Counted from the first letter of the stretch, positions 9,747-33,315 are shown. The stretch is DNA of 64,000 bases from Kofleriaceae bacterium (GCA_965223575.1 CBDCWZ010000010.1:1-64000); one strand, 5' to 3'. Notes: generated from the sequence alone by a model not told the origin. Made by a program: numbers and translations.

Positions 9747-9755
9747 CTCCTTGAT

Positions 9756-11273: not shown

Positions 11274-11297
11274 CGGAACGACCAACTCAGGGGGGAT

Positions 11298-11489: not shown

Positions 11490-11567
<78 letters not shown>

Positions 11568-11916: not shown

Positions 11917-11929
11917 CTCGGTTACGGCA

Positions 11930-12330
11930 CCACGACTGGTCGTCTGCCCGTTTGCTCAAGTGGACGATGGGCTCCTAGGTCCGCCCACCAGATTTCACCG
12001 CACTTCATCTAGCATCTTCTTCATCTAGCATCTTCTTCATCTAGCATCTTCTTCAGCCAGCATCTCGCACCACTCATCTATTCCTTGATCGGCAAGGGCA
12101 AGATCTTCTTCCTCGCCGGTATTAGCGAGCCTATTTAGGTCCCACCGCGCGGGGTCGGGATGACGGAGCACAATCACAGAGACATGCTCGCCTTGGCGAA
12201 GATCTAGACGTTGGCTGGGTTTGAGCACACCGTCACTGTATTCAGCTTCGATCGGCTTCACATTCAATAGATTAGCACGTTCGGCAACTATGGGCTATCG
12301 CCGTGATTTTAGCCCTAGAAAAAGCAACAA
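11930..12330. repeat. ~400-bp direct repeat, copy 1 (copy 2 at ~32450-32860); carries a DUF104-like antitoxin gene and the 5' end of mazF
   Basis: long near-identical stretches, e.g. tttgctcaagtggacgatggg…ccaccagatttc…cttcatctagcatcttcttca…. Confidence 0.75.
12037..12267 (-). CDS. DUF104-like (COG2880) putative antitoxin
   Basis: MNVKPIEAEYSDGVLKPSQRLDLRQGEHVSVIVL; second, frameshifted copy at ~32657-32780. Confidence 0.5.
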   Translation of the reverse strand: MNVKPIEAEYSDGVLKPSQRLDLRQGEHVSVIVLRHPDPARWDLNRLANTGEEEDLALADQGIDEWCEMLAEEDAR

Positions 12331-12676
12331 AAGCGAGAATTTCAAACAGATCGAGCGGTGTCTTCCCAAGAGGTTCCTTCGTCGGGATCCCGTTCGTACT
12401 CTGCTAGCCGTTCGTCCAATACTTCGCGGTGCGACCGGCTCGTAGAGCTTATCGATCTCGGTGGGACTCATCGCATGTCTCCGCGCAAGTTCGTTGCTCT
12501 CCTGCGCAAAGTTGTGACCTTTGAGCGTTGTCGCCGATCCTCGACGTGCTGGTTTAAACCCCACGAGTCACCGCATATGCACTATCACTTGGCCAGCCGC
12601 TCAACAGCTGCCCCCGAGGCCGCGGTTACTCCGAGTGCAGAAGGCCAGACACTCGGAAAGAATTGTCCTGCGCAGC

Positions 12677-15600
12677 TCATTGCCGTTCGTCCAGTTCGGC
12701 AAGCAGCTTGGCCAGCACTTTGCTGCGCTCTGGATCGCGCAGTAGTGTTTCACACGCTGCAAGTAGCTCTGCGCGGTTGCCCAAGTAGGCATCGGTTGTC
12801 TTCTCCAGGTACCGCGCTACGCGGAACAAGTCTGAGATCGGGACGGCACTTTTCCGTTTGCGGGAAGCCCGAACTGGCAACCAGCGTGGTCTCTGTGCGG
12901 GCTTGCCGGTCGGGGCAGGCGCCTTCCACGGACCAGGAGGCCTTGGGCCGACACGGAGGGGGCGACCCTCGCGGGTTGACGCCGCGTCCACAGGTAGCCA
13001 GCGCGAACCGTCGTTTGTTTCAACCAGCGCCATTGCCCACAGGTGATCCGGCTCGTCTACGAAACCGCGGTCAAACGTCCAACCCGTAGCGACAACAGCG
13101 GGAATGCCGGCGCGCCGGAGCAGTTCGCAAGCCAGTGCGTTGAGCTCATAACAGACGCCACGCCCCAGGGTGTCGGCGTCACTGCTTGCGTGCAGCGCCG
13201 CGACGTGTACATTGGAACGGCCGCGGCTTCGCTGCCGGAGCCAGGCTGCAACAGAAGGATCTTCGAGATAGGTGGGATCGTAAACGTAGCGCTCTCGAAT
13301 GAAGGAACGCACCGTTTCGGCCGCTGTGAGTACATCGGTCTCGTTGCGCGCGCTCGCCGCAATATCGTGCACTTCGTCCGGTAATTCCGCGTCCGCCACC
13401 GTGGGTTCCAGAAGTGCTCTGGGCGCACGACGCGGTCGGTCGCCGTTTTCCATGTTGGGCGGTTCAAAGAGCTCAACCTCGACAGTCACGACGGCGTCCT
13501 CTTTGTTAAGCCAAACAGAAAGCCCAGCGGCGTCAACCAGATGATCGAGACCATTCCCCATACCGTCGGCCTGTAGGAGAGACACTTGACCAAATAGGGG
13601 CACGGGTATCACCGCCTCTCCACCAGGCAACTTACCCCGCAAACGGACTCGACCCACAGAATCGGTGCCACGAAACCACGATCCATCGCCCACGAAACGC
13701 TGCCAGCTCTGACTCCAGGAGCTAAAGCCCGCGTAGAGGACTTGTGGCGCGTACTGGTATGGAAGTGGCAGCGACGCGGGCGAGTGGGCGAGACCGAAAG
13801 TTCCCGCCCGCTGGCGGTCAGCAAGCCAGCCTGTTCCGTCGGCTAGTTGTTCCTCGAGATTGCTCCGCGATCGAAACCAGCGGCGATCGCGCTTGGGGTC
13901 ACGACGCGCTGGGGGCGGACGTCTTTGCGACCTCGACCCAGACGGACCGCCAGCTGGCGGCGGAGCAAAAGAGCTTGGCTCGGACTTCGTGGAGTCCCGG
14001 CGGTCTGGCCGCGGCTTGGTCTCCTCATCTTGTTTGTCGTTTCCACGCAGCCATTGCCGCATGCGTGTCAAGAACCCTGGGCCCTCTTCCCCTTTGGGTG
14101 GGCTGGGCTCGCTCGGCTTCGGCTTGGCGGACTCTTCTGGCTCTGCGCCATGCTGGAACGTCTCCTGGATTGTGGGGCCGGTTGCGTTCTCCACAACGCT
14201 TGGGGGGCGACTGGTTTCTCTCGCTCCAATGCTGCTTACTACGCCGTAATGAGCTAGGTAGCTGGCCCAGGCAGAATGTTGCGCACCGTCAGCGAGTACA
14301 ATTTCGAACTCGCCTACGCCTTCATCCCCTGCGAATCTAATCCGCGCCGCTGCTTCTGGTAGCAGGCATACGTACAATTCCTCGTGCCTGTGGCATGCTA
14401 CAGCAAGTTGAGGAGGCTTGTGGCCACCACTGTCTACCAGAAGATCGAGGCACCGCGGCAGACGTTCGGCCCAAAGTTTCCCTTCGGCCTTGGCGACGCC
14501 ATCGGCCCAGTCCACGGTTGCACACAATTCTGAAATAAAGGAGACCACGTCGCGCTTTCCGGGCCGGCGTGCGATGCGCAAGGCCGACGCGAGGCGCCCG
14601 AGCTGTGCTCCCCGTGACCAATCGCCTCGTTGGTCTCCGAACCGGTAGCGGGCACCTTCGATGACAACCTCCCCGGGTCGCCGGAGCACGCCCAGGTCGT
14701 CAACGAGCATTGGAACATGACTGAGCGCATCGCGTAACTTGGTGCCGTCGATGCTGCCGGATGTGAGACCGGCATTGAGCCATGCCAGTACCTCGCTGCT
14801 CGCAGGCGGCTGAGCGGCGATGGTGGCCAGCACGTCCTCGAGGTCCGCGCTGGCACTATCTCGGGTGCCGATCCATTCATGTGCGTTGGGCACCCGATGA
14901 ACGACTTCAGGATGCACGAGACGATCTTCGCGTTCCCCGATGAGATCAGTGAGGTTATCCGAGGGCCAGTACAGTGCCTCGGGACGATGGGGTGTGCCAT
15001 TCTGATCGACGAGCCACGTGCGGTCACGAAGGGCCAGGGCATTTCGCAACTCCGGAATGCGGTGACCCAACCCCGCTACGTAACACGCAAGAGCGACTTT
15101 GGCGTCCGGGCCCGGTTTCAGCGCATTGCCGTCGAGAAATGAGCGTAAAGCATCTTCGCTGAGTTCTGCATCGGCTCCCGCGGCGACAAGCAGCGCTACC
15201 GTTTCGGCGGCCTCGTAGCGGCGAGACACCCGCTGGGGCATCGGGTCGGCGAAGCGCGCAATCAGATCACCATCGTGCGGCGTAGACGCCAATAGGGTTC
15301 TGGGCCGCTTAAACTCGCCGCTGGCACTTTCGACTCGGAGACGTTTTCGCAGCTGCAAGCGGCGCACACGATCACCGAACCCCTCTTGGTCGGGCCGCAG
15401 CGCCCGCGCGAGATGAGCAATGATCGACGCGAGCCTGTCGCCATCACGAGCGTCAATCGCCGCATCGGCGGCATCTAGCAGCTTGTCGCTCAGGGGGCGT
15501 AGCTGTTTGGTTGCGGGTCGATAGGCTGCGCGTAGCCATGTGACAAGCCGACTGGGCAGCTCGTCGGCGGGATTCCAATCGATGCCCAGGTCGGGCAGCT

Positions 15601-17248
15601 CGCGATCAAACAGCAACTCTGTTGGCGCGCGCTGGGCCCCCTGCCCTGAACGGACAAACGCGATCTTTCCCAGTAAGCCACGACTCTGCTCATCGTCAGC
15701 AAATGCATCGCACCGCGCCTCGAGCCACTGATAGAAAGCACGGCGGATTTCGCCGTCGGCAAAAACGGTGCTGGCGTGGCCGGGAGTATCGACCAGCGCG
15801 GCGAGAACCTGCCGCGGATTGGCTTTGCCGACCGCATCCGCGTCGGCGGCATGGACGATCGCCGACCATCGCGGATGTCCGATCCTTTTGGCGAATGGAA
15901 GCTCGGCGCAGAATACAAGCTCATGTTCATCGCCGAGGAGCAGATCGCCCGGCACGAGTTCACCGACGAGATTGACTCCAACCGGCAGAGTTTCAAGAGT
16001 TGGACAGGACTCCGCAGCTCGGCCACGAACGAAGGCGACGGCAACCGCTGCTGCTCGCTCCGGTGTCGCCAGGAGCTCGGCCTGTTCGGCTACCGGGGTT
16101 CCCACCTTGGCGATGCGTGATAGTGCTCGCTCAAACGCAGTCAGAGGATTCGAGAAAGTGAGCCACGGCTCGAGTTGCTCAGCCTGCACGTCAGCTTCCG
16201 CCAAGAGCAAGCTCGCTTCGTCGTCATCGAGCGAACTTGACCACAACACGAAAGTATCGTCCTCAACCCAGCGAGTGATGTCCCGGCGGCGAAGGACTTT
16301 TGAGGCGGGCAACAGACCTTGTCGTGTCGGCCAGATCGGTAGTGCGTGCAACGCATCGACGTGCTCTTCCGCCAATCCCGGTAGTTGGTCGCGACTGTTG
16401 ATGAGGGCTTGGCGCAACGCCCATGGATCTGCATCGGGCGCTAGGCCGCCCCCCGCCACCTTGAGTAGATCCACAAAGCTCGCCGGCGGGCGACCAGCCG
16501 CTGCAAGAAAGACTTCCAGTCGGCGAGCCTCTGTCTCGGAAAGCAATGGTAATGCGGTGCCAGCAAACGCTTCGCGCAACTCCGCCGGCACGTGATGCGC
16601 AGAGTTAGCGGCCGGTGCGTCCCAACTGGCCAGTGGCCTGAATACACTGTCGTCACATTGAAAGATCGCAGCGTCGCACACACGGGCCAGGCGTACGCCG
16701 GGAAGATGGCGGCCCGCAGCCGCGAGCAAGTCCGCGATCGCGGACCGTACGTCAATATCCGCGACCGGTAGTGTAGACGTGGCATCACGGTTCTTGGCAG
16801 CGGGCTGCGTCGTCGCAGCGACGAGATCGTCCAAGGCAGTACCGAAGTTCGGGATAACGACCAAATGATCGAGAGCAAGAGCGCGCGCCAGATGCTGAGG
16901 ACTGCCAGGCTCAGTTCCTTCGGTAATGGTGGGCCGATAAGGCCAGCGCTCGTAGAGCGCAGCTACGGCGGGCTCTGTACTGGAATGGCGAAGCTGATGG
17001 ATCGGATAACGACTGCCATCCTCGCTCCGCCAGATCGGCGCAGCCGCCAGTGCCGCGATGGTTGTGGGACTGAGCGCCTCGCGGTGCGTTGCGAGATAAG
17101 CAAAGGCGGCATCTTGGAAGCGAACGTCTTCCTCGCCACCCAAAAGGGCGTTTGCCACTGAGTCGGCATCGACGATCTTGACACCAAGTTTTGCGACGTA
17201 TGGTAGTTCGGCAATGTCGCGGCGGACCCACGCACGCTGGGGCCACAA
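12677..17248 (-). CDS. C-terminal ~1,500 aa of a giant protein: Ala/Leu-rich helical region, Pro/Arg-rich low-complexity linker, C-terminal transglutaminase-like Cys protease domain; probably one gene with 16963-19992 via a frameshift near 17230-17260
   Basis: C-terminus GVCYELNALACELLRRAGIPAVVATGW…DHLWAMAL…D (Cys-His-Asp TGase core); N-terminus of this frame (…DIAELPYVAKLGVKIVDADS) is protein-like and continues where the upstream frame degenerates. Confidence 0.6.
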   Translation of the reverse strand: MWPQRAWVRRDIAELPYVAKLGVKIVDADSVANALLGGEEDVRFQDAAFAYLATHREALSPTTIAALAAAPIWRSEDGSRYPIHQLRHSSTEPAVAALYERWPYRPTITEGTEPGSPQHLARALALDHLVVIPNFGTALDDLVAATTQPAAKNRDATSTLPVADIDVRSAIADLLAAAGRHLPGVRLARVCDAAIFQCDDSVFRPLASWDAPAANSAHHVPAELREAFAGTALPLLSETEARRLEVFLAAAGRPPASFVDLLKVAGGGLAPDADPWALRQALINSRDQLPGLAEEHVDALHALPIWPTRQGLLPASKVLRRRDITRWVEDDTFVLWSSSLDDDEASLLLAEADVQAEQLEPWLTFSNPLTAFERALSRIAKVGTPVAEQAELLATPERAAAVAVAFVRGRAAESCPTLETLPVGVNLVGELVPGDLLLGDEHELVFCAELPFAKRIGHPRWSAIVHAADADAVGKANPRQVLAALVDTPGHASTVFADGEIRRAFYQWLEARCDAFADDEQSRGLLGKIAFVRSGQGAQRAPTELLFDRELPDLGIDWNPADELPSRLVTWLRAAYRPATKQLRPLSDKLLDAADAAIDARDGDRLASIIAHLARALRPDQEGFGDRVRRLQLRKRLRVESASGEFKRPRTLLASTPHDGDLIARFADPMPQRVSRRYEAAETVALLVAAGADAELSEDALRSFLDGNALKPGPDAKVALACYVAGLGHRIPELRNALALRDRTWLVDQNGTPHRPEALYWPSDNLTDLIGEREDRLVHPEVVHRVPNAHEWIGTRDSASADLEDVLATIAAQPPASSEVLAWLNAGLTSGSIDGTKLRDALSHVPMLVDDLGVLRRPGEVVIEGARYRFGDQRGDWSRGAQLGRLASALRIARRPGKRDVVSFISELCATVDWADGVAKAEGKLWAERLPRCLDLLVDSGGHKPPQLAVACHRHEELYVCLLPEAAARIRFAGDEGVGEFEIVLADGAQHSAWASYLAHYGVVSSIGARETSRPPSVVENATGPTIQETFQHGAEPEESAKPKPSEPSPPKGEEGPGFLTRMRQWLRGNDKQDEETKPRPDRRDSTKSEPSSFAPPPAGGPSGSRSQRRPPPARRDPKRDRRWFRSRSNLEEQLADGTGWLADRQRAGTFGLAHSPASLPLPYQYAPQVLYAGFSSWSQSWQRFVGDGSWFRGTDSVGRVRLRGKLPGGEAVIPVPLFGQVSLLQADGMGNGLDHLVDAAGLSVWLNKEDAVVTVEVELFEPPNMENGDRPRRAPRALLEPTVADAELPDEVHDIAASARNETDVLTAAETVRSFIRERYVYDPTYLEDPSVAAWLRQRSRGRSNVHVAALHASSDADTLGRGVCYELNALACELLRRAGIPAVVATGWTFDRGFVDEPDHLWAMALVETNDGSRWLPVDAASTREGRPLRVGPRPPGPWKAPAPTGKPAQRPRWLPVRASRKRKSAVPISDLFRVARYLEKTTDAYLGNRAELLAACETLLRDPERSKVLAKLLAELDERQ

Positions 17249-19992
17249 CGACTCGATTTCTTTATCGGCGGCAATCTCAGCAGCCCTTCGCCCCGCAACG
17301 GGCAGAGCTTGGCTGTCGCGGTCGGAAAAATGTCCGCGGCCGCGACCCGCTCAAACAGGGCTGCACTGATCTCACTCGCTTGCTCGTCGATGGCTCCATG
17401 AAGTAGGGCCACTTGCTCATGGGCGAAAGCGAGCTCGCCCCGCTCGAGGAGTGCAAGCGCTGCACGTAAATCCAGCAAAGGCGTACCGAGATCCGACAGC
17501 CCCGGACCCCACCGGTCTTCGATCTCCCGGCTCACCAGTGGAGGCCGCGTTTCAGCGTCGCGTACAAGATCTGCCAACGCGCCTTCGCCAGTCAGAAACG
17601 CGAGACCAACGCGGGCCCAATCGGCGCGGTCTGTGGGCACGAGAACCGCCTGATCGATACCAGACCGTTGGCCCAGAGGGGCAGCCAAGACGAGTTCCAT
17701 GATCGGATCGAGACCAGCAGCTTCGACCGCGGCGAGCGCCGCTTTCGGATCGGCAAGTCGCGAAATGAGATCCGCCACGGTTGCGCGTGGAACGCCAAGT
17801 CGCCTGACGAATGGTCGACACTCGGACGTGTCGAGTTCAGGCGCAAGCATTGGGCACAAGGGGCGCAGAGCGCTGGCGAGCACGCCACTTCCACGCAGAA
17901 GCTCGGTGGGGGAGCGTGCGCGGCCGGCGTGATCGGGTAAGCAGGGAAGTAACCGTAGGGGGGCGAGGTCGATGTCGGTAGCGCCGAGAGCGACAGCAAG
18001 CTCTGGAAGGTGCTCACGCCAGGGCGCCGAAAAGGCCGCACCAGATACTTGCGCTTCTGCTTCTCGGGCGAGCAACGCAACAACGCTGGACCAAGCGAGA
18101 TCCCGTGCACCCAGTTCTTTCGCGACTTGTTGATGGCGCGCACTGAGTACGTCAACAAGTCGCCTTTCATCCGCGATAACCAGCCCAGCAAGCGCACGCA
18201 CCACACCAGTATCGGCGCAGAGCAGAGCCTCCAACGGCGCGAGCCATCCGCCCCCAGCTGCGGGCAAGAACGCCACGGGCGCAACCTTGGCGGCGATTGA
18301 CTCATAAGCCGGATCTCCAAGCTCCGAGGGTAAGGAGAGGAGGTCGAGCAGTGAACTCGAACCTTGTTGCTCCTGATTGGTGAGCGTGGAAATGAGCTCG
18401 GCGAAGAGCTCGCCCGCTTGGTCGATTGCCCAGCGGTTCCACGGAGATGAAAGGTCCAGTCTCTCTCGATCTACGGGCAGGTCGAAGTGCGCGTGTAACA
18501 GCATTCGCAGGCCCGAGCGTTCGTTGGTAGGAAGGTAGCTGTACACGGTGGGCCGATCGCCCAAAGGCTCCGGCGTACCATCACCGGCCAACGCAATTGC
18601 GACCAACACAGGTGTGGCCGTTGTGCGGCTGGCATCGCGGGGGCCCTCGTAGCGGCATTCTCGTGAGCCAAGAAAGTAGGAGCGAGCGGCGTTGTTGTCG
18701 CGCAGGGTCACGTACTGATCATCCGCACCATGGCGAACGACGGAGCGTCTGCGACTGCCGTACCGTACATGAATCTCTCGCAACGAGTTTAGAGTTAGGA
18801 GCACTTCCGCTGGCAAATCTGCCATTCGTCCGAATAGGCGTTCTCCAGAGCGAGTCTCGTCAGTTGGGTCGCGTAGAGGCAGAATCAGCAACGTACGGTC
18901 CGGTGCGAGACCCGAGCGAGCTTTGAGCGGACGGGGAATCGAGACATCCGCAATCTCGAAGGCGTAGGCGCCAGAGTAGACCTGGGGACGCTCGCAAATC
19001 TCGTAGACCGACTTGAATCCGACACCGAAGAAACCGATTTGGTCTTTGCTCTTCGTCGTCTGGCCAATGGAAAGGAGACCGACAACGTCGCGAGCGTCAA
19101 AGGGGGCGCCGTCGTGCTCGACCTCGACGCGATCCTCTTCGAGACGCAGGTGCCACACACGAGCGCCCGCGTCGTCGGCGTTTTGTAGAAGCTCGATGAG
19201 AAAGTGCCCGGGGTCGGTATAGATCTGACGTGAGAGAAGCTGCTCTGCGTTGGCCTGGCTCAAAGACTTGGGTTGCGCCTCTAGTGTGTCTAGCAGTTCT
19301 GCCGCGAAACTAGCCAGTCGCGCGTTCCACGCTTCACTCACGTCCGCGTTCGCGGCTATTGCTGCCAGCTCGACAGTGTTTGCGCCGGGTATGCGCATAA
19401 GCTCGCGATCGCCAATTCTGTCTAGGGCCCCGGTACCCAGTGCTTCGCGACAGATGTTCAAGGCCCCGTCCACCATAGAACTGCGTGCCGATGGCGCGAC
19501 GTTCTTGAGCCACCGATCGATGACGGCAAAGGCCGTGATGCGCGTGGCCGGCAGTTCTGCAGCACACCGCACGAGAGCTTCAGCGAATTCAATCACAGCC
19601 GGCGCCCCCTCGAGCGCGCGCAAAACCCTCCGAAGGCCAGTGTCGGGTAGTGCTGTAACCACGCTCGCGATTGAGTCCGCTGAGCCGACGAGCTCGCCGC
19701 TAACCGCGAGATTCGCCAGCATCCGTGCCAGGGGTTCGTGATCGCGAAAGGAGGCAAGTTCAGTGACCAGATCGGGTCCACGCCCCTGGCGAAGAGCTTC
19801 GTCAATGGCGACAATCTGCTCGGGAAACGGCAACCGCCGTAGTGCTGATGGCTCGCTGGTCAACTGGGCCAATCTACCAGCATGATCAGAGTAAGGCCAT
19901 ACCGGCAGCCACAGGCGTATTGTCACCCAAAGGGGCCGCTCGAAAGACGCGATCCGCGGCGTATTCGTCGGGCGATCACCATGCTGTTCCAT
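16963..19992 (-). CDS. N-terminal part of the giant protein: sacsin/Hsp90-like GHKL ATPase domain; last ~100 codons of this frame look non-coding, so the true reading frame probably shifts into 12677-17248
   Basis: SRQIYTDPGHFLIELLQNADDAGA (GHKL N-box as in the sacsin SRR/Hsp90-like ATPase), then GLLSIGQTTK, GFFGVGFKSVYEI; true start codon unclear (ORF start overlaps terminase fragments). Confidence 0.6.
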   Translation of the reverse strand: MEQHGDRPTNTPRIASFERPLWVTIRLWLPVWPYSDHAGRLAQLTSEPSALRRLPFPEQIVAIDEALRQGRGPDLVTELASFRDHEPLARMLANLAVSGELVGSADSIASVVTALPDTGLRRVLRALEGAPAVIEFAEALVRCAAELPATRITAFAVIDRWLKNVAPSARSSMVDGALNICREALGTGALDRIGDRELMRIPGANTVELAAIAANADVSEAWNARLASFAAELLDTLEAQPKSLSQANAEQLLSRQIYTDPGHFLIELLQNADDAGARVWHLRLEEDRVEVEHDGAPFDARDVVGLLSIGQTTKSKDQIGFFGVGFKSVYEICERPQVYSGAYAFEIADVSIPRPLKARSGLAPDRTLLILPLRDPTDETRSGERLFGRMADLPAEVLLTLNSLREIHVRYGSRRRSVVRHGADDQYVTLRDNNAARSYFLGSRECRYEGPRDASRTTATPVLVAIALAGDGTPEPLGDRPTVYSYLPTNERSGLRMLLHAHFDLPVDRERLDLSSPWNRWAIDQAGELFAELISTLTNQEQQGSSSLLDLLSLPSELGDPAYESIAAKVAPVAFLPAAGGGWLAPLEALLCADTGVVRALAGLVIADERRLVDVLSARHQQVAKELGARDLAWSSVVALLAREAEAQVSGAAFSAPWREHLPELAVALGATDIDLAPLRLLPCLPDHAGRARSPTELLRGSGVLASALRPLCPMLAPELDTSECRPFVRRLGVPRATVADLISRLADPKAALAAVEAAGLDPIMELVLAAPLGQRSGIDQAVLVPTDRADWARVGLAFLTGEGALADLVRDAETRPPLVSREIEDRWGPGLSDLGTPLLDLRAALALLERGELAFAHEQVALLHGAIDEQASEISAALFERVAAADIFPTATAKLCPLRGEGLLRLPPIKKSSRCGPSVRGSAATLPNYHTSQNLVSRSSMPTQWQTPFWVARKTFASKMPPLLISQRTARRSVPQPSRHWRLRRSGGARMAVVIRSISFAIPVQSPP

Positions 19993-20473: not shown

Positions 20474-20513
20474 AGCCAGCCGGCGAGCAATACGTGACTT
20501 CGACTTGGCGAGG

Positions 20514-22951: not shown

Positions 22952-25900
22952 GTGACCGGTCGGCGGCGAATCGGCAAAACTACTTTGATTCAGAAGGCCC
23001 TCGGGTCTGAACGGAAACACGGGGTTTTTTACATCCAAATTCCCGACTCAGGTCCTGCTGGTGTTCTGTCTGGAATTGCAGACGCTATGGATACTTTTGC
23101 GATTAATGAGGACGCCTTTCCTCGGCCAACGAATCTATCGCAGCTCGCCAGCATAGTGGGCCAACTGGCGCGCGCGGGCTATATTGTAGCGCTCGATGAG
23201 TTTCAGTATTTCAATCGTGCGAGACTGAAGGACTTCTGCTCACTGCTTCAGAGCGAGGTCGACAGACTATCGTCAGATGCCGAGAAGTATGCGCCCAATG
23301 CGCCCCATGTAGCATGAATCATCTGGCGGCAGTATTGTCGCTACATGGAACCATGCGGTTCAACAAACTCGATCGGTTTATTCCTGATCGACAATCTTCT
23401 CAGCGAGCCATTGAGCAGGGGTAGCGGTTCTCAGCTGGTTGGCGGAGATGCCGGCGGCGATTCTGTGAAAGATGTCTCTGAGATACTCGTAGGGGTTGGC
23501 GCCGACAAGGGTGCAGTTGAGCACAGCAGTCATGATGGTGGCGTAGCGTTGTCCTGCTTCGCGAGAGCCGACGAAGAGTGCATTTTTGCGAACCAGCGTA
23601 ACGATCCGGAGCGCACGCTCGACATGGGCATTGGAGATCGGCACCGAACCGAACTGCAAAAACAGGCCCAGGGCTTCGCGCTGCCGAGTCCAGTAGGTAA
23701 GCGCTTTGGCCAAGGGGGTACGAGATTTCCTCTGTTGGGCAAACTTGGCAACATAAGCATCGATGTCCGCAATCATGGCAACAGAATGTTGTTGACGAAG
23801 CGCGAGGCGTTGTTCGTCAGTCATCTGGTTGTCCTGGGCGTAACGCTCCACCTGATACAGTCTTGCCATCAAATCGATGACTGGTGCAGCTCGTTTGTCA
23901 CCACTGTCGAGCGCATGAACAAATTTTCTACGCGAATGGTCCATACAGCCAGCCTGCCGTGGTGGGGCCAATCCTCGATAGAGTTTTTTGATTCCCGCAT
24001 ATCCATCATGTTGCGTGTTGCCCTGAAATTCGGCGAGAAGTTTACAAGGGTAAATCCCTTTCCAGTCCGGCGAAAATTCACAATACGCGGTCCGCCCGCG
24101 ATCGCCCAAATAGATCCAAAATCGCCCACGCTGAATGTTTTTGGGATGGGCAGGATTTTGCATTGGCATGGGGGTATCGTCAAAGCTGATCAGTGCGCTC
24201 TTGAGTAGGTCTGTCTTGGCGCCTGGGTTAAAAACGGATAACAGCTCGGCCCCTTGCGCATACCACTGTCCCAATGTTTTGTCAGATAGCTCGATCCCGC
24301 GTCGCAGCAATGCGGTGCTTTGACGATACAGAGGCATCGCGTCGCAGACTTTGCTCGTCATGATTTGCGCCATCAGGCTGGGGGTTACCACGGAGCCTGG
24401 GATCAGTTTGGGCGTTAAATTCCCGCTGACAATGCCGTCTTTGCAGTCACGACACGCGTATTTATGAGCGCGTTCTTCGCGGACGAAGGCATGTTGCTGG
24501 TTCAAATTCTAGGTGCACTGTTTTGTCGAAACCAATGTGGTCCTTTTCGCGATTGCAGCCATTACAGTGGCGTTCCGAATCAGGGGGATGTTTGTCGTCG
24601 ATCACTCGCTCGAGATTGTCTAAATTTGTGGTCCGCTTCTTACGCTTTTTTCTCTTGTGAGCAGGAGTCTTCGATCGTTTCCTTTGGTAAGTCCGAAGGC
24701 CCCCTCGGCCACCATGTATTCTAGGAGCGCGAGTGACAACTGAGCCGGGGAGATTTTTTCTGAGCTCGGACGATATTTCGACGCAATCTGCCTCCGCATA
24801 CCATCGATTTCTTGTTTCATGCGCTCAATGATCGGCATGGCTTCGGCAAGAACTTCTTGGCCGGCTTCACGCTCCTTGTCCGTTGCCAGATTGGCAGTGA
24901 CCGAAACAAGAAATTCGTGAATCGATGCCGTATCGATAGAGCCTTCCCACGTCCCCACACCTCCTTGTATCACGCGTGTCCGACATTCTCACCTTTACGA
25001 AACTCTTGATTGCGATTGTTTTTCCGCGAAGAAGTTTCGCCAAATCCTCTGCTTTGATCTCGATCGTGTTCCTGATCTTGTTTGGGAATCGGAAATGTCC
25101 CAGACTCAAGTCGCTTCGCCAAAATGCAATATCCCTGCTGATCAAAAAACAAAATCTTGAGCAGATGACGCCGACGATTGGCAAATACGTATAGATGGCC
25201 GGTTTCTGGATCTGCGTCCAGCGCTTCACGAACAACCTTCGCAAGACCATCAAACTGTTTCCTCATGTCAACAGGATTCACTGCCACAAAAACGCGGACC
25301 TTCGTCGGTAGCGTTAACATGAGCCATCCAGAGAGTTTGCCCACTCGCAGACATTCTCGCCGATCCGACTTGGAACAAAACAATAAACGCCTGCCGTTTT
25401 TGAGAACGAGCTCGTAGCGGGGTTCTCCGCTCAAAGCAATCTCGTCACGAACCTTTACTTCAACAAATTCTGTCTGGCCAGATTGTTTTTCACGCCTCTG
25501 CCAACTCCATAACGCAGACGCCGAGATCCCATGATGTTTGCCAAATTCTACCGCAGACCGATTGCTCTTCTGCCATGCGCGGAGAATCTTTCGCTGCTCT
25601 GCACGACTTCTTTGAATCCGTTTTTGCATTCCATGCGGTTTAACTCGACAGGCTGCTGCGCGAAACATGGGGCTCACGGGGCGCATACGCCGAGAACGTC
25701 TCTGGGGGGACTGCTCGTTCTGGGATCCATTCACACCGAGATGTCCACGCTTCTAGAAGATCGGAGCGCTCCGTTATTCAATCGCACCACCGACGAAATC
25801 GCGCTATCTCACCTGGACGTTGGTTCCCTAATCAAATTGCTGGACGCGCATACTGATTCGACGCCAGAGCGACTGTTATTTCTTTGGAATATGTTCGAGG

Positions 25901-26743
25901 GAGTGCCGAAGTTTTATCGCGACTGTTACGAACAAGGAGTAATAGATGAGGATCGCAACAAACTGCTAAAGCGGGTTTTCTTTCAGAGTTCGTCTCCACT
26001 CAGAACCGAAGCCGATAACTGGTTCTTGAAAGAAATCCACGGACGCTATGATGTGGTGCTCAAATTCATCCGCGCGAAATGGTGGTTGCAGCCATGGAGA
26101 ACTCGTAACCCACGTTCGTAACGTTAGTGGCGAAGAAAGTGAACAGGTTGGCGGCTATCTGAAGGGGTTGATAGAGAAGTATGGACTAATCGAGAAGAAG
26201 CTACCCATCTTTGCAAAACCAAAAGCACGCAAGGGTCGATATTACATTTCCGATAACTTCCTGCGCGCATGGCTGGCGGCTATTGCAAATCAGGTGGCTG
26301 CACTCAATTTCGTTCCGGCGGACAAACTCATTGCAACAACAAATGATCGCCTTGCGGAAGTTGAAGGATTCGCTTTGGAGAAACTGGTTGGGCAGATCTA
26401 CGAGGAATGTAGCCGCAAAGGAGTGGGCGATTTCCTTTTGTCCGACCGAGTTCAAGGTTTTTGGGATCGCAATGACACGGAAATCGATCTCGTGGCTCTC
26501 AATGAAACAGAGCGTCGGATCAGATTTGGCAATTGTAAGCGATCAGCCACAAGACTCGTTGCTGATTTCACAAAATTCGACGGCCATGTCGCACGATTTC
26601 TTAAAGCTCACAAAAAGTACCAAGATTGGACTGTAGAAAAAGCGGCTATCGCACCGACTATCCCGCCGGGAATCCGAGAAGTCATTCTGTCTCACCAGTA
26701 CCTTGCTCAGGATCTAAATGATTTAACTCGTCCGTTACGGTAG
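22952..26743 (+). pseudogene. ATPase_2 (PF01637)/DUF234-family AAA+ ATPase gene disrupted by an IS66 insertion and frameshift (pieces 22952-23317, 25740-26121, 26048-26743)
   Basis: N-terminal TGRRRIGKTTL (Walker A); C-terminal …YYISDNFLRAWL…EIDLVAL (DUF234); paralog of the intact 48059-49549 gene. Confidence 0.65.
23330..25760 (-). mobile_element. IS66-family insertion sequence (tnpA-tnpB fused ORF + frameshifted tnpC)
   Basis: 24970-25734: IS66 Orf1 HTH (RAEQRKILRAWQKS…) fused to Orf2 (VFVAVNPVDMRKQFDGLA…HLYVFANRRRHLLKIL); 23378-24973: TnpC (…ISNAHVERALR…) split into two frames. Confidence 0.85.
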
Positions 26744-26999: not shown

Positions 27000-28024
27000 T
27001 CATCGGCTTCCTCTCGAATAATCGCAAAACGCTTGGGTGCACCCAAATCCTCCGCTCCCAGCTCCGAGCAGCGGAAGCGCCACCGTCCGTGCTCCCAACC
27101 AGTGTGCCAGGCGAAGGGATGACTGCGCCGCTTGTCTGATCGATTGCTCCGACGCTCGCCACGCCAGATCAATCGCGTCGGCGTGGATCACCCACTTCGC
27201 CGCAAGCTGGCCGGCGTTTGTTTCCATGGCGTTGCCCAGCGGCAGTGGGCCTGCTCTGCCGGCGGCCGCAATGACTGCCCGCCCGCCCGCACTGCGGATC
27301 GCCCGCGCCACTCCCTGGGGTATGACAAGCCACGGAGGGATGAGATTTCGATTCCACGCGTTCACGATGGCATCGACTTCGCGAGCGGCGATATCTCCCT
27401 CAACCTCGATGATCTCGGCCCGGGTGGCGCTCACCGCCTCCTGAACGGCGAGTCGATCTGCCAGCCAGACGAGGGAATCGCGATGCTGAACTGTGCCCGC
27501 CCACTTCTCAGGGAGGGCTAGGACTCCGATTTGGGCGCCGATGCACGCCGCTACTGTGGCACCAATGCTGTCGGTATCTCCGCCTGCGCGGAACACTGCA
27601 TTCATCGCAGCCTGAATATCCGTGCCGTGATCGAGGAGAGTGTGAACCACGGCCGACATGCAACCGCAATGGTAAGCTGTGTATCGTCGGATACATCTCC
27701 GGGACGGCGCAAGAAACGAATTAGGCCCCGCCGCATTCGTACTGCACCAGGATAACGAAGTCGAGTCATCCAACGCGGTAGGCTCTCCGCTGGCAGGTTG
27801 AGCGCATCACCGACACCCAGGCCAACCAAGCAACCACGGCATCGATCGATGCGCTCACTCACCTCGCGAGAATCGGTTGGTTCAAGCTCCGGGTAGGCGT
27901 GTCGAGCCCAGCGAATTCGGCACGCCGCCACGAAAGCTCTCCAAACAAGATACCCGGCGCTGACGATCCACAGCGCCGTGAAGGCGAAGCGCACCAAGTC
28001 CACCGTCATTGTGCTCCCTCCCAA
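27000..28024 (-). pseudogene. ADP-ribosylglycohydrolase (ARH/DraG-like) fused to a C-terminal Macro domain; single frameshift near 27700
   Basis: 28024-27602: LVGLGVGDALNLPAE and GDVSDDTQLT (ARH N-terminal motifs); 27773-27000: GGDTDSIGATVAACIGA (ARH C-terminal), then AIVNAWNRNL…AAKWVIHA (Macro). Confidence 0.6.
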
Positions 28025-28204
28025 CGCCTGATGCCCAGGCGCTCGCTCGTTTTCCGATCCGATATCGGAAATACGCTCGGTCGCCCGGACTTTGGCCAGT
28101 GATCATGCAGCTCTACATACTTTTCCGTGCGGAGGTTCATTTGGATCTTGCCTTTGTGTACTTGGTACATTAAGCTATGTGTATAGAGTACACAATAAGA
28201 AACC

Positions 28205-28894
28205 ATGACTGTTACCTACAAATATCCGCGCCCCGCTGTCGCGGTCGATTGTGTGGTCTTTGGTGTCGATGATGAGGACCTAAAGGTACTCCTGATTCAA
28301 CGAGATCTGAAACCATTTGAGGGCTCGTGGGCGCTGCCCGGCGGCTTCGTTCACATGGACGAAGGCCTCCCCGATGCTGCTCGTCGCGAACTCAAAGAGG
28401 AGACGGGCCTCGGGCGTGTGTTCCTGGAGCAGCTCTTCACCTTCGGCGCCGTCGACAGAGATCCGCGAGGCCGCGTCGTGTCGGTCGCCTACTACGCGCT
28501 GGTGCGGCTTATGGATCATAAGGTTCAGGCCGCCACGGATGCCCGCGACGCGAAATGGTTCCCCGTCTGGGACACGCCATCACTGGCGTTCGACCACGAG
28601 CGGATCCTGCAAACAGCTCTCGACAGGCTCAAGGGCAAGGTGCGTTATCAGCCCATCGGCTTCGAGCTCCTGCCCAAAAAATTCACCTTGAGTCAACTCC
28701 AAGGCCTCTACGAAACCATCCTGGAGCGCGAGCTCGATCGGCGGAACTTCCGCAAGAAAATCCTGTCCATGGACATTTTGGAGGAGCTCGATGAGGTTCA
28801 GGAAGGCGTCGCCCACCGTGCGGCTCGCCTCTATCGCTTCAACGAGCGCAAATACAAGAAGCTCGTCAAAGCGGGCTTCGACTTTCAAATTTGA
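28205..28894 (+). CDS. Nudix hydrolase with C-terminal winged-helix domain (NrtR-like ADP-ribose-responsive regulator/ADPR pyrophosphatase)
   Basis: [26 protein letters not shown] (Nudix box) plus ~90-aa C-terminal extension typical of NrtR. Confidence 0.7.
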
Positions 28895-28903
28895 GGAATC
28901 AAC

Positions 28904-29401
28904 ATGTCGCAGATTTTATACAAGACAGGTGACGCAACTCAGCCCACGACCACCGGTTGCAACATTATCGCCCACATCTGCAACGACCTTGGTGGCTGGG
29001 GGAAGGGGTTTGTCGTAGCAATTTCTCGGCGTTGGCCTGGGCCAGAGAAGGAGTATCGACGGTGGCATGCAGAGAAGTCGCCTGCGTTCGAGCTTGGGGC
29101 GATGCAACTCGTAGCGGTCAGCTCCACACTTGCCGTGGCGAATATGATCGCGCAGCGAGGAATCCGTAGCACATCGGATGGTCCTGCCATTCGGTACGCG
29201 GCCCTTCGAACATGCCTCGAGACGCTAACAGATCACGCACAGCGTCTCCGTGCCAACGTGCACATGCCCCGCATCGGGTGTGGTCTTGCTGGAGGAAAGT
29301 GGGAGCAGATCGAACCGATCATCAAAGATACGCTAATCGCTGGGGACGTCTCGGTGCATGTCTATGACTTCGCACCATCCGGTCCCGCGAGAAAGGAGTA
29401 G
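28904..29401 (+). CDS. Macro-domain protein (ADP-ribose/O-acetyl-ADP-ribose binding or hydrolase)
   Basis: [19 protein letters not shown] … [13 protein letters not shown]. Confidence 0.7.
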
Positions 29402-29404
29402 ACA

Positions 29405-30430
29405 ATGGCAGAGATCAGAGACTTCGGGATTGTTCGGCACCTTCGGGCGGATCCGACTTCGCACATCATCAAGTACAAGAAGGGCCAAGTGCATCGAGCG
29501 GGTCGTGGTGGCGCCCTGTGGTTCTTGCCGATGTCTACGGCCCTGGCGGAAGTGCCGGTCGATGATCGCGAACTGTCGTTCCTGTTCCATGGTCGGTCTT
29601 CGGACTTCCAGGACGTCACGACCCAGGGTGTCATCACCTACCGGATCGCAGCGCCTGAGACAACGGCCGACCGGATTGACTTCAGCATCGACCTCCGCTC
29701 GGGGGTTCACCGGAAACAACCGCTAGAGAAGCTGGCGCTGTTTCTCAATGAGCTGGCCCAACAGTTTGCCTGGGCCTACGTGGTGCGAACTCCGGTTCGC
29801 GAGCTGCTCGTAAGCGGCCAGGAAAAAGTTCGCCAGGACATCATGGCCGGCTTTGCGCAAGAAAATGGGCTGGCGGACCTGGGCATCGAGATCGTCTCGA
29901 TCCGCGTGTCATCCATCAAGCCAACCGCCGACCTGGAGAAGGCCTTGGAGACCAAGACGCGGGAAAAGATCCAGCAAGAGGCCGACGAGGCGATGTTCGA
30001 GCGCCGCGCCCTGGCTGTGGAGAAGGAGCGTGCCATTGCCGAGAACGAGCTACAAAACCAGATCGAACTCGCGACTCGAGAAGAGCAGCTCATCGCCCAG
30101 CAGGGACAAAACGAGAAGCGACGCATCGAAGAGGGGGCCGAGGCCAAGAAGATCGCGGCGCAGGCGGAGGCGGAGCGAACAGAGATCCAGTCTCGCGCCA
30201 AAGCTGGAGGGATCCGGTTCGTGGAGAGCGCAAGAGTTGCGGGCGAGCGCGAGCGCATGGAGATCTACCGGGACTTGCCACCCGCCGTAACCATGGGGCT
30301 CGCGGCCCGCGAGCTTGCCGGCAAGCTCCACAAGATCGAGCATCTCAACCTGTCGCCGGATCTGCTCGGACCGTCGCTGCTGAACCTCATGAACCTCGGC
30401 GCCAAGAAGCTAGATCCGGCAGACGGGTAG
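29405..30430 (+). CDS. SPFH/band-7 (stomatin/prohibitin-like) domain protein with coiled-coil C-terminus
   Basis: …[43 protein letters not shown]…. Confidence 0.7.
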
Positions 30431-30437
30431 CCAAAGG

Positions 30438-31337
30438 ATGAAGGGAAACAAGGCGCCCAGGGTCGTGGTAGTGACGCGGCCAACTCAATACGACGAGTTG
30501 ATCGCTCGCCACGCGACTCGGCAGCAGGCGGAGTTCTTCCTCAAAGGCCGGGGACAATCGCTGGAGTCCGTGGACCGTGCCCACCAGCTCTGGCTCTCTG
30601 CTGTCGAAGCCATTTCGCAGGCGATACCTGTGTCGTGGCGGAGGTCTGCGGTTTCCCGCCTTGACCTCAATCGGTTCGTCTTCGAGCCCAGCGACCTTGT
30701 TGTCGCTGTCGGCCAGGACGGCCTTGTGGCTAACGTCGCTAAGTATCTCAGCGGACAGCGGGTCGTCGGCATCAATCCAGATCCTGAGACCTACGATGGC
30801 ATCCTGGTTCCGCACCAGCCCAGTGCCCTCAAGCGGCTGTTTAGGTCGGTGAAGGATGAGCGATGCGAGATCGAGGCGCGGTGCATGGTCTCTGTGACCG
30901 TCGATGACGGCCAGAAGCTCCTTGCGCTCAATGAGCTCTTTCTCGGGCATCGCACTCACCAGTCGGCGCGATACCGAATTGGCTGGGCAGGAACCGAGGA
31001 AGTACAATCATCCTCGGGGCTCATTGTCACAACCGGGACCGGCGCCACAGGCTGGGCTCGGTCCATTTGTCTGCGGCGCATCGATCCACCACGGTTGCCA
31101 ACACCGACAGAAGCGAGTCTCGCCTTCTTTGTGCGTGAAAGTTTCCCAAGCGTTGGCACAGGGATCGCAATCCAAGACGGACTGATCCCGCAACCCGAGC
31201 AACTGAACGTCGTCTCGCAGATGAACGACGGCGGAGTCATCTTCGGCGACGGGATCGAGAACGACCGAATTGACTTTCACTGGGGCATGACGGCCAACAT
31301 TCAGGTGGCGGATGTACGCCTACAACTCGTGCGCTAG
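30438..31337 (+). CDS. NAD kinase-like (ATP-NAD/diacylglycerol kinase fold) protein
   Basis: LVVAVGQDGLVANVAKYL…VVGINPDP (GGDG-type motif, degenerate), later TTGTGATGWARS; starts 8 nt after the SPFH stop. Confidence 0.55.
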   Translation: MKGNKAPRVVVVTRPTQYDELIARHATRQQAEFFLKGRGQSLESVDRAHQLWLSAVEAISQAIPVSWRRSAVSRLDLNRFVFEPSDLVVAVGQDGLVANVAKYLSGQRVVGINPDPETYDGILVPHQPSALKRLFRSVKDERCEIEARCMVSVTVDDGQKLLALNELFLGHRTHQSARYRIGWAGTEEVQSSSGLIVTTGTGATGWARSICLRRIDPPRLPTPTEASLAFFVRESFPSVGTGIAIQDGLIPQPEQLNVVSQMNDGGVIFGDGIENDRIDFHWGMTANIQVADVRLQLVR

Positions 31338-32283
31338 GAGAACCATGCTGCTGCAGCCAATATCAACCCAACTATCAAAGGCTCGCCGGATTTTGCTTGC
31401 GGGCTGTGGCGGCGGATACGATGTGATGGGAGCGGTTCCACTGTTGGTGGATCTTCTAGCGGCCGGGCACGATGTCGCGCTGGCCAACCACTCATTCTCC
31501 AATCTGGCGGATCTGCCGCGCGTACTCCAGGACGCCGAAGTTGATTGTCTGTATGAGGTGCCACCGTCAGCCGCCACGTCGGACAGGTATTGCCCGGAAG
31601 CTTGGCTTGCGCGATGGTGTGCGGAGAGACTTGGGAGGGAGGTCCAGTCGTGGGCCTTCGCCAAGAAAGGCTCGCGACCATTGCACGCTGCCTACCAACG
31701 GCTTATCTTCGAGCATGACTTCGATGCCATCGTTCTCATTGATGGAGGCATTGATGCAATTTTGCGCGGCAATGAGTCCTCTCTTGGGACACCCGCAGAG
31801 GATCTCGCTTCTCTCGCGGCGGTTTCACGACTCGATGTGCCCATCAAACTCATCGGGTGCGTTGGGTTTGGCGGCGAGATGCGCGATGGGATCTGCCACG
31901 ACCAAGTGTTCGACCGCATCGCCGAACTTACGGCACTCGGCGCGAACCTAGGCAGTGCCACGCTCCTCGCACAGACCTTGGCGGGACAGCGCTACCTCGA
32001 GGCGGTGGATTACGTGTTCGCCAACCAACAGGGCCAGCGCACCAGCCACATTCACAAGGTTGTGAGTGCTGCCGTCCGTGGCGAATCGGGCAGTCGCGGC
32101 GAGCATGTCTGGCTCTCGCCACTCCTCAATCAGTTTTGGTTCTTCGACCTCATGGGCGTCACCGGCAGTCATCTGTTCCTAGAGCATCTCTGGGACACGC
32201 AGGAGAGCTGGGACGTCTCGGCTCGTATCGAAGGACTCCGCAAAGGCGTGGACATCTTGCCTCGATCGAGGATTCCGATCTGA
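31312..32283 (+). CDS. DUF1152-family protein
   Basis: ILLAGCGGGYDVMGAVPL… N-terminal signature; overlaps the previous gene end (operon). Confidence 0.5.
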   Translation: MYAYNSCARRTMLLQPISTQLSKARRILLAGCGGGYDVMGAVPLLVDLLAAGHDVALANHSFSNLADLPRVLQDAEVDCLYEVPPSAATSDRYCPEAWLARWCAERLGREVQSWAFAKKGSRPLHAAYQRLIFEHDFDAIVLIDGGIDAILRGNESSLGTPAEDLASLAAVSRLDVPIKLIGCVGFGGEMRDGICHDQVFDRIAELTALGANLGSATLLAQTLAGQRYLEAVDYVFANQQGQRTSHIHKVVSAAVRGESGSRGEHVWLSPLLNQFWFFDLMGVTGSHLFLEHLWDTQESWDVSARIEGLRKGVDILPRSRIPI

Positions 32284-32298
32284 TGAATCAGCACCATC

Positions 32299-32562
32299 CT
32301 AGATCCCTAGCGCTACGCATTGGAGCGCGGATTTGAAACGCCAATGCGACGAGGTTTCAAGACCATCATCTTCGTGGCCGTCAATCACGGCGATTCCGGC
32401 TAGATGGGCACGATCGAGATTCGTCGTAAGCGGCACGACTAGAACCGATTGTAGTGCTCGGATGAGGGCATCACTCTGCCATACCACCACTGGGCGTCTG
32501 CCTGTTTGCTCAAGTGGACGATGGGCACCGAGATCAGCCCACCAGATTTCGCCGCGCTTCAT
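32299..32562 (-). CDS. mazF: MazF/PemK-family endoribonuclease toxin
   Basis: MKRGEIWWADLGAHRPLEQTGRRPVVVWQSD…; a truncated copy of its first ~28 codons lies at 11936-12020. Confidence 0.75.
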   Translation of the reverse strand: MKRGEIWWADLGAHRPLEQTGRRPVVVWQSDALIRALQSVLVVPLTTNLDRAHLAGIAVIDGHEDDGLETSSHWRFKSALQCVALGI

Positions 32563-33315
32563 CTAGCATCTTCTTCAGCCAGCATCTCGCACCACTCATC
32601 TATTCCTTGATCAGCAAGGACCATATCCTCTTCCTCACCAATCTTGGCGAGACGATTTAAGTCGCGGGATCGGGACGGCGAAGCACGATCGAAGAGACAC
32701 GCTCTCCATGGCTAAGATCTAGACGTTTGCCGGGCTTGAGCACACCGTCACGGTATTCAGCTTCAATTGGCTTCACAGTCAATAGGTTACCATGTTCCCA
32801 AACTGCGGGCCATCGCCGTGATTTGGCCCTAGAAAAAGCAACAAAAACGAGAGGTTCAAACCGTCTCCGAAAGCGGCGCAGAGCGTGATTTTTCCGGGCT
32901 AGTCCTCGATTGGGCATAGACGGGGAATTCCAACAAACGATTCGCCACACACACTACAACGCTTTACGTTCACACCAATCAAGGTAACGCGAACGCCCTG
33001 GGCATCGTACAGATAGTTTTCTCTTGCAGACTTCAACTGCCCGTCACAATGTATGCACTTCATGTCCATCTCCCCAAACTAGCGATGCGTCCGCCATACT
33101 GTGACGATGACAAGCTCGAACTCACTCCAGAAGCAACCACAACGGTGGGCAACACGCCGAATAATAATGCGTGTCATTGCTCAGACGCGTGGTCTGCCGG
33201 TAGCTCTTCCTGAAAATCTTCCCAAGAAGTTCCTTCGTCGGGATCTCGTTCGTACTCTGCTAGCCGTTCGTCTAATACTTTGCGGTGCCAGTTGGGAACT
33301 TCAACTTGCTCTGAT

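Follow-up and report, generated by a model that had tools for sequence, protein, structure and literature searches.

Old, diverged copies of one toxin-antitoxin block beside tRNA-Gly(CCC) in a Kofleriaceae genome

Introduction

A stretch of 64,000 nucleotides (nt) from a Kofleriaceae bacterium (GCA_965223575.1 CBDCWZ010000010.1:1-64000), called the window here, contains two direct repeats of about 400 base pairs (bp) that carry fragments of a toxin-antitoxin (TA) module, a DUF104-like antitoxin gene followed by mazF, and that lie on either side of some 20 kb of mixed cargo. A sequence-only reading had proposed that the cargo entered as one insert by recombination within or next to the TA locus, or alternatively that the insertion event duplicated the module. 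The question is thus whether the repeats record one event or several. We find that they go back to one TA block, whose copies are old, differ by 14% and were broken independently. Serial acquisition of related integrative elements of the tRNA-Gly(CCC) type, followed by erosion, is in our judgement somewhat better than an even proposition, with the interval being the remains of several events, for which we infer an order and mechanism of acquisition.

Extent and identity of the repeats

The direct repeat occupies 11929-12347 (419 bp) and 32483-32861 (379 bp), and 326 of the 379 aligned bases (86%) are identical in a gapped alignment, far beyond chance. Self-BLASTN recovers it in two pieces, 12035-12347 with 32557-32861 (83.4% identity, expectation value E 2e-76) and 11929-12033 with 32483-32587 (89.5%, E 2e-31), and a separate repeat search of the window returned the same pieces. 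Three indels, of 32 bp, 7 bp and 1 bp, separate the copies. Comparison of the window with itself thus bears out the length of about 400 bp that had been claimed; the copies are nonetheless 14% diverged and gapped.

The repeats belong to a larger set of paired fragments. An extra piece of 72 bp (12361-12432 with 33217-33288, 94% by self-BLASTN) lies apart from the main repeat, by 13 bp in copy 1 and by 355 bp in copy 2, and self-BLASTN also pairs 9600-9825 with 32923-33147 at 82%. The latter match belongs to the DUF4258/MqsA module, and the PDC-S27 module likewise forms a diverged pair (87%) in the region.

At each edge of the repeat a deletion has cut into a gene of copy 1, at codon 27/28 of mazF, of which codons 28-~93 are gone, and in the middle of the Unstab_antitox gene. 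The edges are deletion scars and not recombination joints.

Such abrupt truncations raise the possibility of an assembly artefact, in which the repeats or junctions would be chimeric joins. Many genes are truncated within 750 bp of copy 1, and GC content differs strongly among segments. However, copies with 14% divergence and indels do not collapse or mis-join in assemblers, the truncated genes retain remnants that are consistent in reading frame, and an IS66 insertion sequence (IS) in the interval has a clean 8-bp target duplication. We regard an artefact as very improbable.

Genes of the TA block

All the repeat genes lie on the minus strand, and the block consists of an Unstab_antitox remnant, an AF2212/DUF104 antitoxin and mazF. 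It sits just upstream of a small tyrosine integrase in this genome. At least three blocks, all in one orientation, are present in a variable region of about 36 kb between tRNA-Gly(CCC) and hflX:

11.7-12.5 kb, minus strand: TA-1 with the integrase remnant int1'
20.9-23.0 kb, minus strand: a mazF scrap with the integrase remnant int2
32.3-33.3 kb, minus strand: TA-2, without an integrase

The individual genes of these blocks are as follows:

11854-12008, minus strand: mazF copy 1 pseudogene; codons 1-27 (12008 to 11928), 5 nt, then the out-of-frame last ~22 codons and the stop (11922 to 11854)
22907-22957, minus strand: third mazF fragment; residues ~62-78, GHEDDGLETSVALAFQI, 87.5% identical to copy 2, with a weak tblastn match
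32288-32562, minus strand: mazF copy 2 pseudogene; one nucleotide lost near codon 71 (~32350), homology as far as residue ~87 (32303), the 3'-terminal ~29 codons absent
12037-12267, minus strand: AF2212-like/DUF104 antitoxin, copy 1; intact open reading frame (ORF) of 76 codons with a TTG start, Pfam PF01954 E 3e-8
32559-32782, minus strand: AF2212-like antitoxin, copy 2; frameshifted by a 7-bp deletion after ...RRPDPA, the restored sequence matching PF01954 with E 1e-7
12003-12065: 16-bp tandem repeat at the overlap of antitoxin stop and mazF start in copy 1; ~3.9 copies (Tandem Repeats Finder, period 16, 95% matches)
12342-12471, minus strand: remnant of the Unstab_antitox family (PF09720), copy 1; PF09720 E 5e-7, TIGR02574
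33174-33290, minus strand: Unstab_antitox-family remnant, copy 2; C-terminal ~38 codons with an in-frame stop upstream, PF09720 E 1e-9
32923-33147, minus strand: fragment of a DUF4258/MqsA-like TA pair found by self-BLASTN; 3' end of the toxin and the first 49 antitoxin codons

The antitoxin of copy 1 is intact, as had been read from the sequence. It is full length, because it is collinear with the 76-amino-acid (aa) partner found directly upstream of P0002, a MazF homologue on metagenome contig L083 (47% identity, one gap of 1 residue). The AF2212-like gene of that contig overlaps the toxin start (GTGA). In the database the copy 1 gene call begins 2 codons downstream of the TTG start, and a word-based search of 5.8 billion proteins for relatives returned its own entry alone. 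The frameshift of the copy 2 antitoxin, also noted from the sequence, is confirmed by the 7-bp deletion in the alignment and by the translations. Both the PF01954 match and the position directly upstream of a toxin place these genes with the AF2212-like/DUF104 antitoxins; the overlap with the toxin is kept in copy 2 and disrupted in copy 1. Copy 2 has one 16-bp unit (32560-32575) and a canonical ATGA overlap of antitoxin and mazF, and the 32-bp indel between the copies is an expansion of this unit in copy 1. The expansion uncouples the two reading frames at the overlap of copy 1. A scan for promoters with a sigma-70-like consensus and a search for terminators found none around either copy.

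Upstream of the antitoxin, the 94% piece is the C-terminus of Unstab_antitox (PF09720/TIGR02574) in both copies. In copy 1 a putative start, MSPTEIDKLYEPV (12471 to 12433), abuts the C-terminal 30 codons (12431 to 12342) in another frame, and since the pieces lie in different frames an internal deletion is indicated; that MSPTEIDKLYEPV is the N-terminus of the gene is our own reading of the sequence. In copy 2 the Unstab_antitox piece is separated from the antitoxin by the DUF4258/MqsA-like fragment, which measures 225 bp, is absent from copy 1 and is 82% identical to an intact pair at 9252-10076 with Pfam and TIGR03830 matches.

The mazF genes had been described as a short 5' fragment of about 28 codons joined to an integrase in copy 1 and as intact in copy 2. 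Codons 1-27 are indeed present in copy 1, but the direct joining does not hold, because the gene's own C-terminus, TELAELELATDEALGRIRPPDW* (11922 to 11854), lies in between and the integrase scrap (11820 to 11701) begins 33 nt past the mazF stop. About 66 codons have been deleted internally; four homologues match residues 1-23 and 96-114 only in tblastn, and protein alignment and BLASTN to L081/L082 agree. Nor is copy 2 intact. It reads ...TSSHWRFK after the 1-nt deletion, where the third scrap and all homologues read ...TSVALAFQ..., and restoring 1 nt extends the Pfam PemK profile match from 1-67 to 1-80 and improves PF02452 from E 5e-12, as called, to E 1e-14. No homology is left beyond residue ~87, at 19 nt from the stop codon (32281-32283) of a convergent DUF1152 gene, against which the copy ends; copy 2 corresponds to the 87-aa database protein P0001. 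Homologues with 75-84% aa identity measure 115-117 aa and end at ...SELRELELATDEALGRVEPEL, and a set of 103 homologues spans 112-120 aa. Against a full-length PemK/MazF domain of ~110-117 aa, copy 1 has residues 1-27 and ~94-116, copy 2 has 1-~87 with a frameshift, and copy 3 has ~17-30 residues. As judged from their sequences, the three are remnants of members of the MazF/PemK family (PF02452), without an intact member. The antitoxin of copy 1 alone still has an open frame, and every mazF copy in the window is broken. The third fragment (22903-22958 with 32327-32380 by self-BLASTN) abuts an N-terminally truncated PDC-S27 gene. It was considered as the missing middle of copy 1 mazF and rejected, its position relative to the gene direction being wrong.

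The ends of mazF copies 1 and 2 bear on the strongest rival of serial acquisition, which refines the single-insert idea. In this explanation one pre-assembled mosaic of 20,356 bp (11928-32283) inserted inside the mazF of one resident TA locus (Unstab-2, antitoxin-2, full mazF, int1', tRNA-Gly). The segment would have carried its own eroded TA-1 at one end, and the tail at 11854-11927 would be the 3' end of copy 2 mazF. Copy 2 is detectable to residue ~87 and the orphan tail from ~94-96, so that the pieces are nearly complementary. By our arithmetic, joining 32284 to 11927 gives 353 nt in frame, the expected length minus the known 1-nt deletion, and inactivation of mazF would be favoured once antitoxin-2 was frameshifted. 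The 24 bridging bases, however, encode LGWC*FTV, which falls below the random mean when scored on positions 88-95 of the profile built from the 103 homologues; 65% of random 24-mers equal or exceed its score, and R89, I90, R91, L93 and T94 are nearly invariant in the homologues. The 19 nt after residue 87 do not match three homologous genes significantly (87/2000, 1505/2000 and 1524/2000 shuffles reach the score). The end of the insert must also fall at codon 27 of another mazF in the same orientation, a coincidence that we estimate at 1-2%. No microhomology, IS end or attachment (att) site was seen at either joint, and the segment, a mosaic in its own right, contains integrase and mazF relics of its own. 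Clean insertion into mazF was discarded, the bridging bases being unlike mazF, and we hold the insertion of such a mosaic to be unlikely. A bolder form, in which the 20,356 bp (11928-32283) landed in the resident mazF as one block guided by its own diverged TA copy, is more doubtful still; in that case TA modules would serve as portable patches of homology by which whole defence-island segments are captured, and the antitoxin of copy 1 would have been kept as an orphan "anti-addiction" factor against MazF-bearing elements.

Divergence between the copies

The substitutions between the copies tell how old they are. The N-termini of the two mazF copies differ by 8 synonymous changes and 1 nonsynonymous change, giving a ratio of nonsynonymous to synonymous rates (dN/dS) of 0.03 at a dS of 0.65. 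The other pieces give dN/dS 0.36 and dS 0.33 (N-terminal part of the antitoxin), 0.14 and 0.53 (its C-terminal part), 0.08 and 0.23 (Unstab piece), 0.06 and 0.73 (MqsA-like piece) and 0.22 and 0.89 (integrase piece), each estimate resting on just 18-49 codons and all pointing in the same direction. Because the differences are mostly synonymous, the copies diverged for long as working genes and were broken later. Over mazF codons 1-27 they are 89.5% identical to each other, against 76-83% to the homologous loci that were fetched.

A flanking duplication made by an insertion leaves identical or nearly identical repeats. Here 14% of positions differ, mostly at synonymous sites (8:1 in mazF; dS 0.3-0.65), and three indels separate the copies. 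Since the copies are old and their divergence is biased to synonymous sites, the proposal that the insertion event itself duplicated the TA module is refuted. The repeats are instead diverged paralogous or xenologous relics of one "addiction block", composed of Unstab_antitox, the AF2212/DUF104 antitoxin and MazF on the minus strand.

A xenologous origin, which fits the synonymous-biased divergence, would also be expected of a Campbell-type integration, in which a circular element with a homologous TA block entered by a single homologous crossover with the chromosomal TA, leaving hybrid direct repeats that later suffered deletions. The copies are directly oriented, and their homology extends across three consecutive genes (Unstab, antitoxin and mazF). 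Nevertheless, RecA-dependent recombination works poorly on a block that is 86% identical and has indels, and identity runs at 83-94% along the repeat without a clear breakpoint, so that no mosaic switch is seen. The third mazF scrap and the second integrase in the interval are left unexplained, and as many later deletions are needed as in serial acquisition. We consider this route quite unlikely.

Alternatively, an ancient segmental duplication in this chromosome may have copied a TA-integrase segment two or three times, the copies remaining functional for long and then decaying. The paired copies have similar identities, at 86% for TA, 87% for the integrase and 87.5% for mazF-3, and the antitoxin of copy 1 has no relative beyond its own entry in the word-based search. 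However, the cargo flanking the copies is wholly different, and recombination would tend to remove direct repeats that lie 20 kb from each other. The MazF family also crosses phyla at 75-84% aa identity, so related copies can easily arrive separately. A duplication within the chromosome is thus rather improbable.

Integrase remnants and tRNA-Gly(CCC)

Two integrase remnants, and no more, were detected in the window by tblastn, and they lie in the same region as one tRNA gene:

11490-11564, minus strand: tRNA-Gly(CCC); ARAGORN and Rfam, 70.9 bits
11701-11823, minus strand: tyrosine-integrase remnant int1'; last ~39-40 codons including the GH...Y catalytic end
20906-21460, minus strand: integrase pseudogene int2; tblastn 42-53% over ~200 aa, PHROG integrase match, GC ~47%

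Against nine homologous integrases in tblastn, int1' is 62-72% identical to seven, and 46% and 60% identical to the other two. It shares 87% nt identity with int2 over 11747-11821. The N-terminal part of int2 is frameshifted, and its catalytic domain continues to ...GHVTVE, where it is fused to a tail whose translation, as we read it, suggests IS3 OrfA. The third mazF scrap precedes int2 by 1.5 kb, both being on one strand. The order of mazF followed by an integrase therefore occurs twice in the window, with the integrase downstream of mazF and on the minus strand both times.

The integrase family is associated with tRNA-Gly(CCC). Its homologues (53-59% identity, 250-290 aa) end 39-159 nt from the 3' end of a tRNA-Gly(CCC), convergent with it, in loci L084 and L085/L086, of which L085 and L086 are near-identical to each other. 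Locus L087, also with an integrase homologue, has no tRNA, and the flanking sequence retrieved for L084-L086 shows no att repeats. Scanning metagenome and viral contigs with the integrase gave no hits. In the window, the 34-mer from the anticodon loop to the T loop of tRNA-Gly(CCC) recurs exactly (11503-11536 and 38-71). The region is a tRNA-Gly integration hotspot.

The interval and its cargo

The contents of the interval had been listed essentially correctly, as a giant GHKL/transglutaminase gene, a terminase scrap, IS3 and integrase fragments, an ATPase split by IS66 and an ADP-ribose cluster. Besides the integrase and mazF remnants and an unassigned 233-aa ORF, it holds the following:

12677-19992, minus strand: giant TmtA (Tiamat)-like GHKL/sacsin ATPase with a C-terminal transglutaminase domain; PADLOC TmtA E 9e-49, Pfam SACS and Transglut_core
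19976-20233, minus strand: scrap of a terminase large subunit; PHROG 38 E 1e-9
20514-20870, minus strand: scrap of IS3 OrfB HTH_21; Pfam HTH_21 E 8e-20
22952-26743, plus strand: PDC-S27-type ATPase (DUF234) interrupted by IS66; PADLOC PDC-S27 E 1e-39 and 1e-85
27000-32283, both strands: NAD/ADP-ribose cluster by Pfam and NCBIfam; macro and ADP-ribosylglycohydrolase (minus), NrtR, macro, Band7, NAD-kinase-like and DUF1152 (plus)

GC content is 61-63% at 13-21 kb, 47-54% at 21-27 kb and 56-62% at 27-32 kb. Rather than one coherent element, the interval is composite, with three GC regimes, an integrase pseudogene and a mazF scrap of its own, terminase and IS3 scraps and a separate IS66, and its composite GC and gene content weakens the single-insert idea. 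The right end of the 20.4-kb interval is unmarked, because no att or tRNA remnant lies there. TA-fragment repeats do bracket about 20.4 kb, as had been described, but the entry of one 20-kb insert by recombination in the TA locus is not well supported, given the intragenic deletion edges, the additional mazF and int2 inside, the composite interval and the lack of an att site or tRNA at its right end.

The giant gene, with a GC content of 61-63%, is split into two overlapping frames near 17.3 kb, by either a frameshift or a sequencing error, and is collinear with a single 2485-aa ORF in Paraliomyxa miuraensis (L002 13945-21402). The Paraliomyxa miuraensis homologue lies 1 kb downstream of hflX and an ABC-F gene, so that the family is found near hflX in both genomes, on opposite sides. 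The 3' end of int2 runs into the IS3 scrap. IS66 (Pfam IS66) spans 23287-25688, with terminal inverted repeats of 24 nt and a perfect 8-bp target duplication, GCCGAGAA (23279-25696). An inverted paralogous PDC-S27 fragment at 2080-2155 (87%) is uninterrupted across the IS66 insertion point and represents an internal "empty site". At 28139-31335 the core of NrtR, a gene X, Band7 and the NAD-kinase-like gene is 77-82% identical in nt to L088-L090, whose NrtR protein is identical to a Haliangium ochraceum entry; the NrtR of the window belongs to the same 90% protein cluster. In L088-L090 X is DUF4291, not macro, and the downstream genes are SIR2_2 and a 556-aa protein, not DUF1152. These differences represent module swapping in an NAD/ADP-ribose conflict system.

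To the right, the chromosome continues with hflX, the ABC-F gene, gltBD and others, and synteny with relatives from Nannocystales/Polyangia holds from hflX onward only. By HflX, the collections searched contain no close relative, the best matches reaching 64% in the genome collection and 61% in the metagenome collection, and synteny upstream of hflX is not conserved. Neither megablast of the whole interval against plasmid and phage collections nor a BLASTN comparison of the copy 2 region with plasmids produced a match, and whole-window tblastx returned noise only.

The left block and other repeats

On the 3' side of tRNA-Gly(CCC), a block of 11.4 kb (38-11564) is bounded by an exact 34-bp direct repeat. 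It lacks an integrase but contains a dense array of 16 tRNA genes (3228-7277), two HNH-endonuclease ORFs, TA genes and a transposase scrap, and looks like an integrated island that carries the tRNA array. Inversion of the block would restore the usual order of integrase and tRNA. A repeat of 94-130 nt occurs nine times between tRNA genes at 2782-6406; it starts with GGTTAACTAGG and folds into two hairpins (z -6.9), and one copy has a borderline Rfam tRNA match at 2985-3038. Just downstream of the array, self-BLASTN finds a perfect 36-nt palindrome (7539-7574).

Three near-identical palindromes of 75-80 nt (9119-9198, 10165-10244 and 11292-11371) form DNA hairpins of -26 to -28 kcal/mol and bracket the intact DUF4258/MqsA-like TA pair and a phosphatase ORF in a cassette-like manner. 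They share a terminal motif, ATGGGGAC[GA]CGTT, with a near-perfect hairpin of 146 nt (57003-57148, -89 kcal/mol) between gltB and a TPR gene, and together they may be a family of miniature inverted-repeat transposable elements. Integron attC sites were considered for the palindromes and rejected, as inspection by eye revealed no complementary AAC/GTT pair (R''/R' boxes). An integron array was likewise rejected, both integrase remnants in the window resembling tRNA-Gly-associated integrases and not IntI.

Discussion

Serial acquisition accounts for the repeats as follows. Related integrative elements, each stabilised by a TA block, would reach the tRNA-Gly hotspot or its vicinity repeatedly, and each arrival would bring a different defence cargo, such as the Tiamat-like giant gene, PDC-S27 or the NrtR/macro cluster. 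Deletions, frameshifts and insertions of IS3 and IS66 may then have eroded the integrases, the att sites and the toxins.

Several observations weigh against this explanation. No tRNA-Gly or att remnant occurs in 11.6-36.1 kb, and accretion at the tRNA on the right side is thus without a direct record. The remnant int1' is found 5' of the tRNA and runs in the same direction, while the integrases of L084-L086 converge on the 3' end; as this orientation is opposite to that of the homologues, at least one rearrangement must be assumed. TA-2 has no adjoining integrase. Elsewhere the integrase homologues occur without this TA block, so that the TA-integrase linkage is seen in this window only. That copy 2 mazF (1-~87) and the orphan tail (~94-116) nearly complement each other must be attributed to chance, for which our own estimate is roughly a tenth, and the codon counts behind the dN/dS estimates are small. 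Our confidence in serial acquisition is held at slightly above even because the att scars are missing and the orientation of int1' and the tRNA is unexplained.

What appears to be a neat insert with its own duplication is read here as a layered relic of repeated mobile-element traffic beside tRNA-Gly, and the main value of the study lies in this correction. Addiction modules can persist as scars that mimic insertion-generated repeats, and synonymous-biased divergence separates old paralogues from repeats generated by an event. From a Myxococcota-like genome, the region also records the pairing of MazF with an antitoxin of the DUF104 type, as well as a defence island with Tiamat-like, PDC-S27 and NrtR/macro genes. 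Current understanding is unchanged by these findings; the region is an ordinary graveyard of mobile elements and defence islands.

Comparison with known systems

DUF104/COG2880 has been assigned to the AbrB superfamily, whose antitoxins serve MazEF, Kis-Kid and PemIK, and has been described for the most part in thermophiles and, again for the most part, together with PIN toxins (Makarova et al. 2009, PMC2701414). In contrast to that description, it is paired here with MazF in a Myxococcota-like genome. The block resembles type II modules of the MazEF/PemIK kind in its toxin of the PemK/MazF fold (PF02452), its upstream 76-aa AF2212-like partner and the overlap of stop and start (ATGA in copy 2, GTGA in L083). 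It differs from them in that no working module is present in the window, every toxin copy being broken.

Tandem accretion and decay of integrative elements at a tRNA gene is known from arrays of integrative and conjugative elements, integrative and mobilizable elements and cis-mobilizable elements (Pavlovic et al. 2004, reviewed in PMC5704250), and TA modules are known to stabilise composite islands (PMC8978831, PMC2654960). Unlike in accretion arrays, internal att repeats are not found to the right of the tRNA (11.6-36.1 kb); the exact 34-bp repeat bounds the left 11.4-kb block. Unlike its homologues, int1' lies on the wrong side of the tRNA in the wrong orientation and does not converge with the tRNA 3' end. 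As in such arrays, related tyrosine-integrase remnants are found near one tRNA, with mixed cargo, addiction modules beside integrases and deleted integration genes, and the integrase family stands beside the same tRNA species elsewhere (L084, L085/L086).

Several defence genes of the region are disrupted, such as the frameshifted giant gene and the PDC-S27 gene with IS66, which sets it apart from intact defence islands. As in defence islands in hotspots, however, the Tiamat-like TmtA, PDC-S27, macro/NrtR/NAD genes and TA modules are clustered with IS and prophage scraps.

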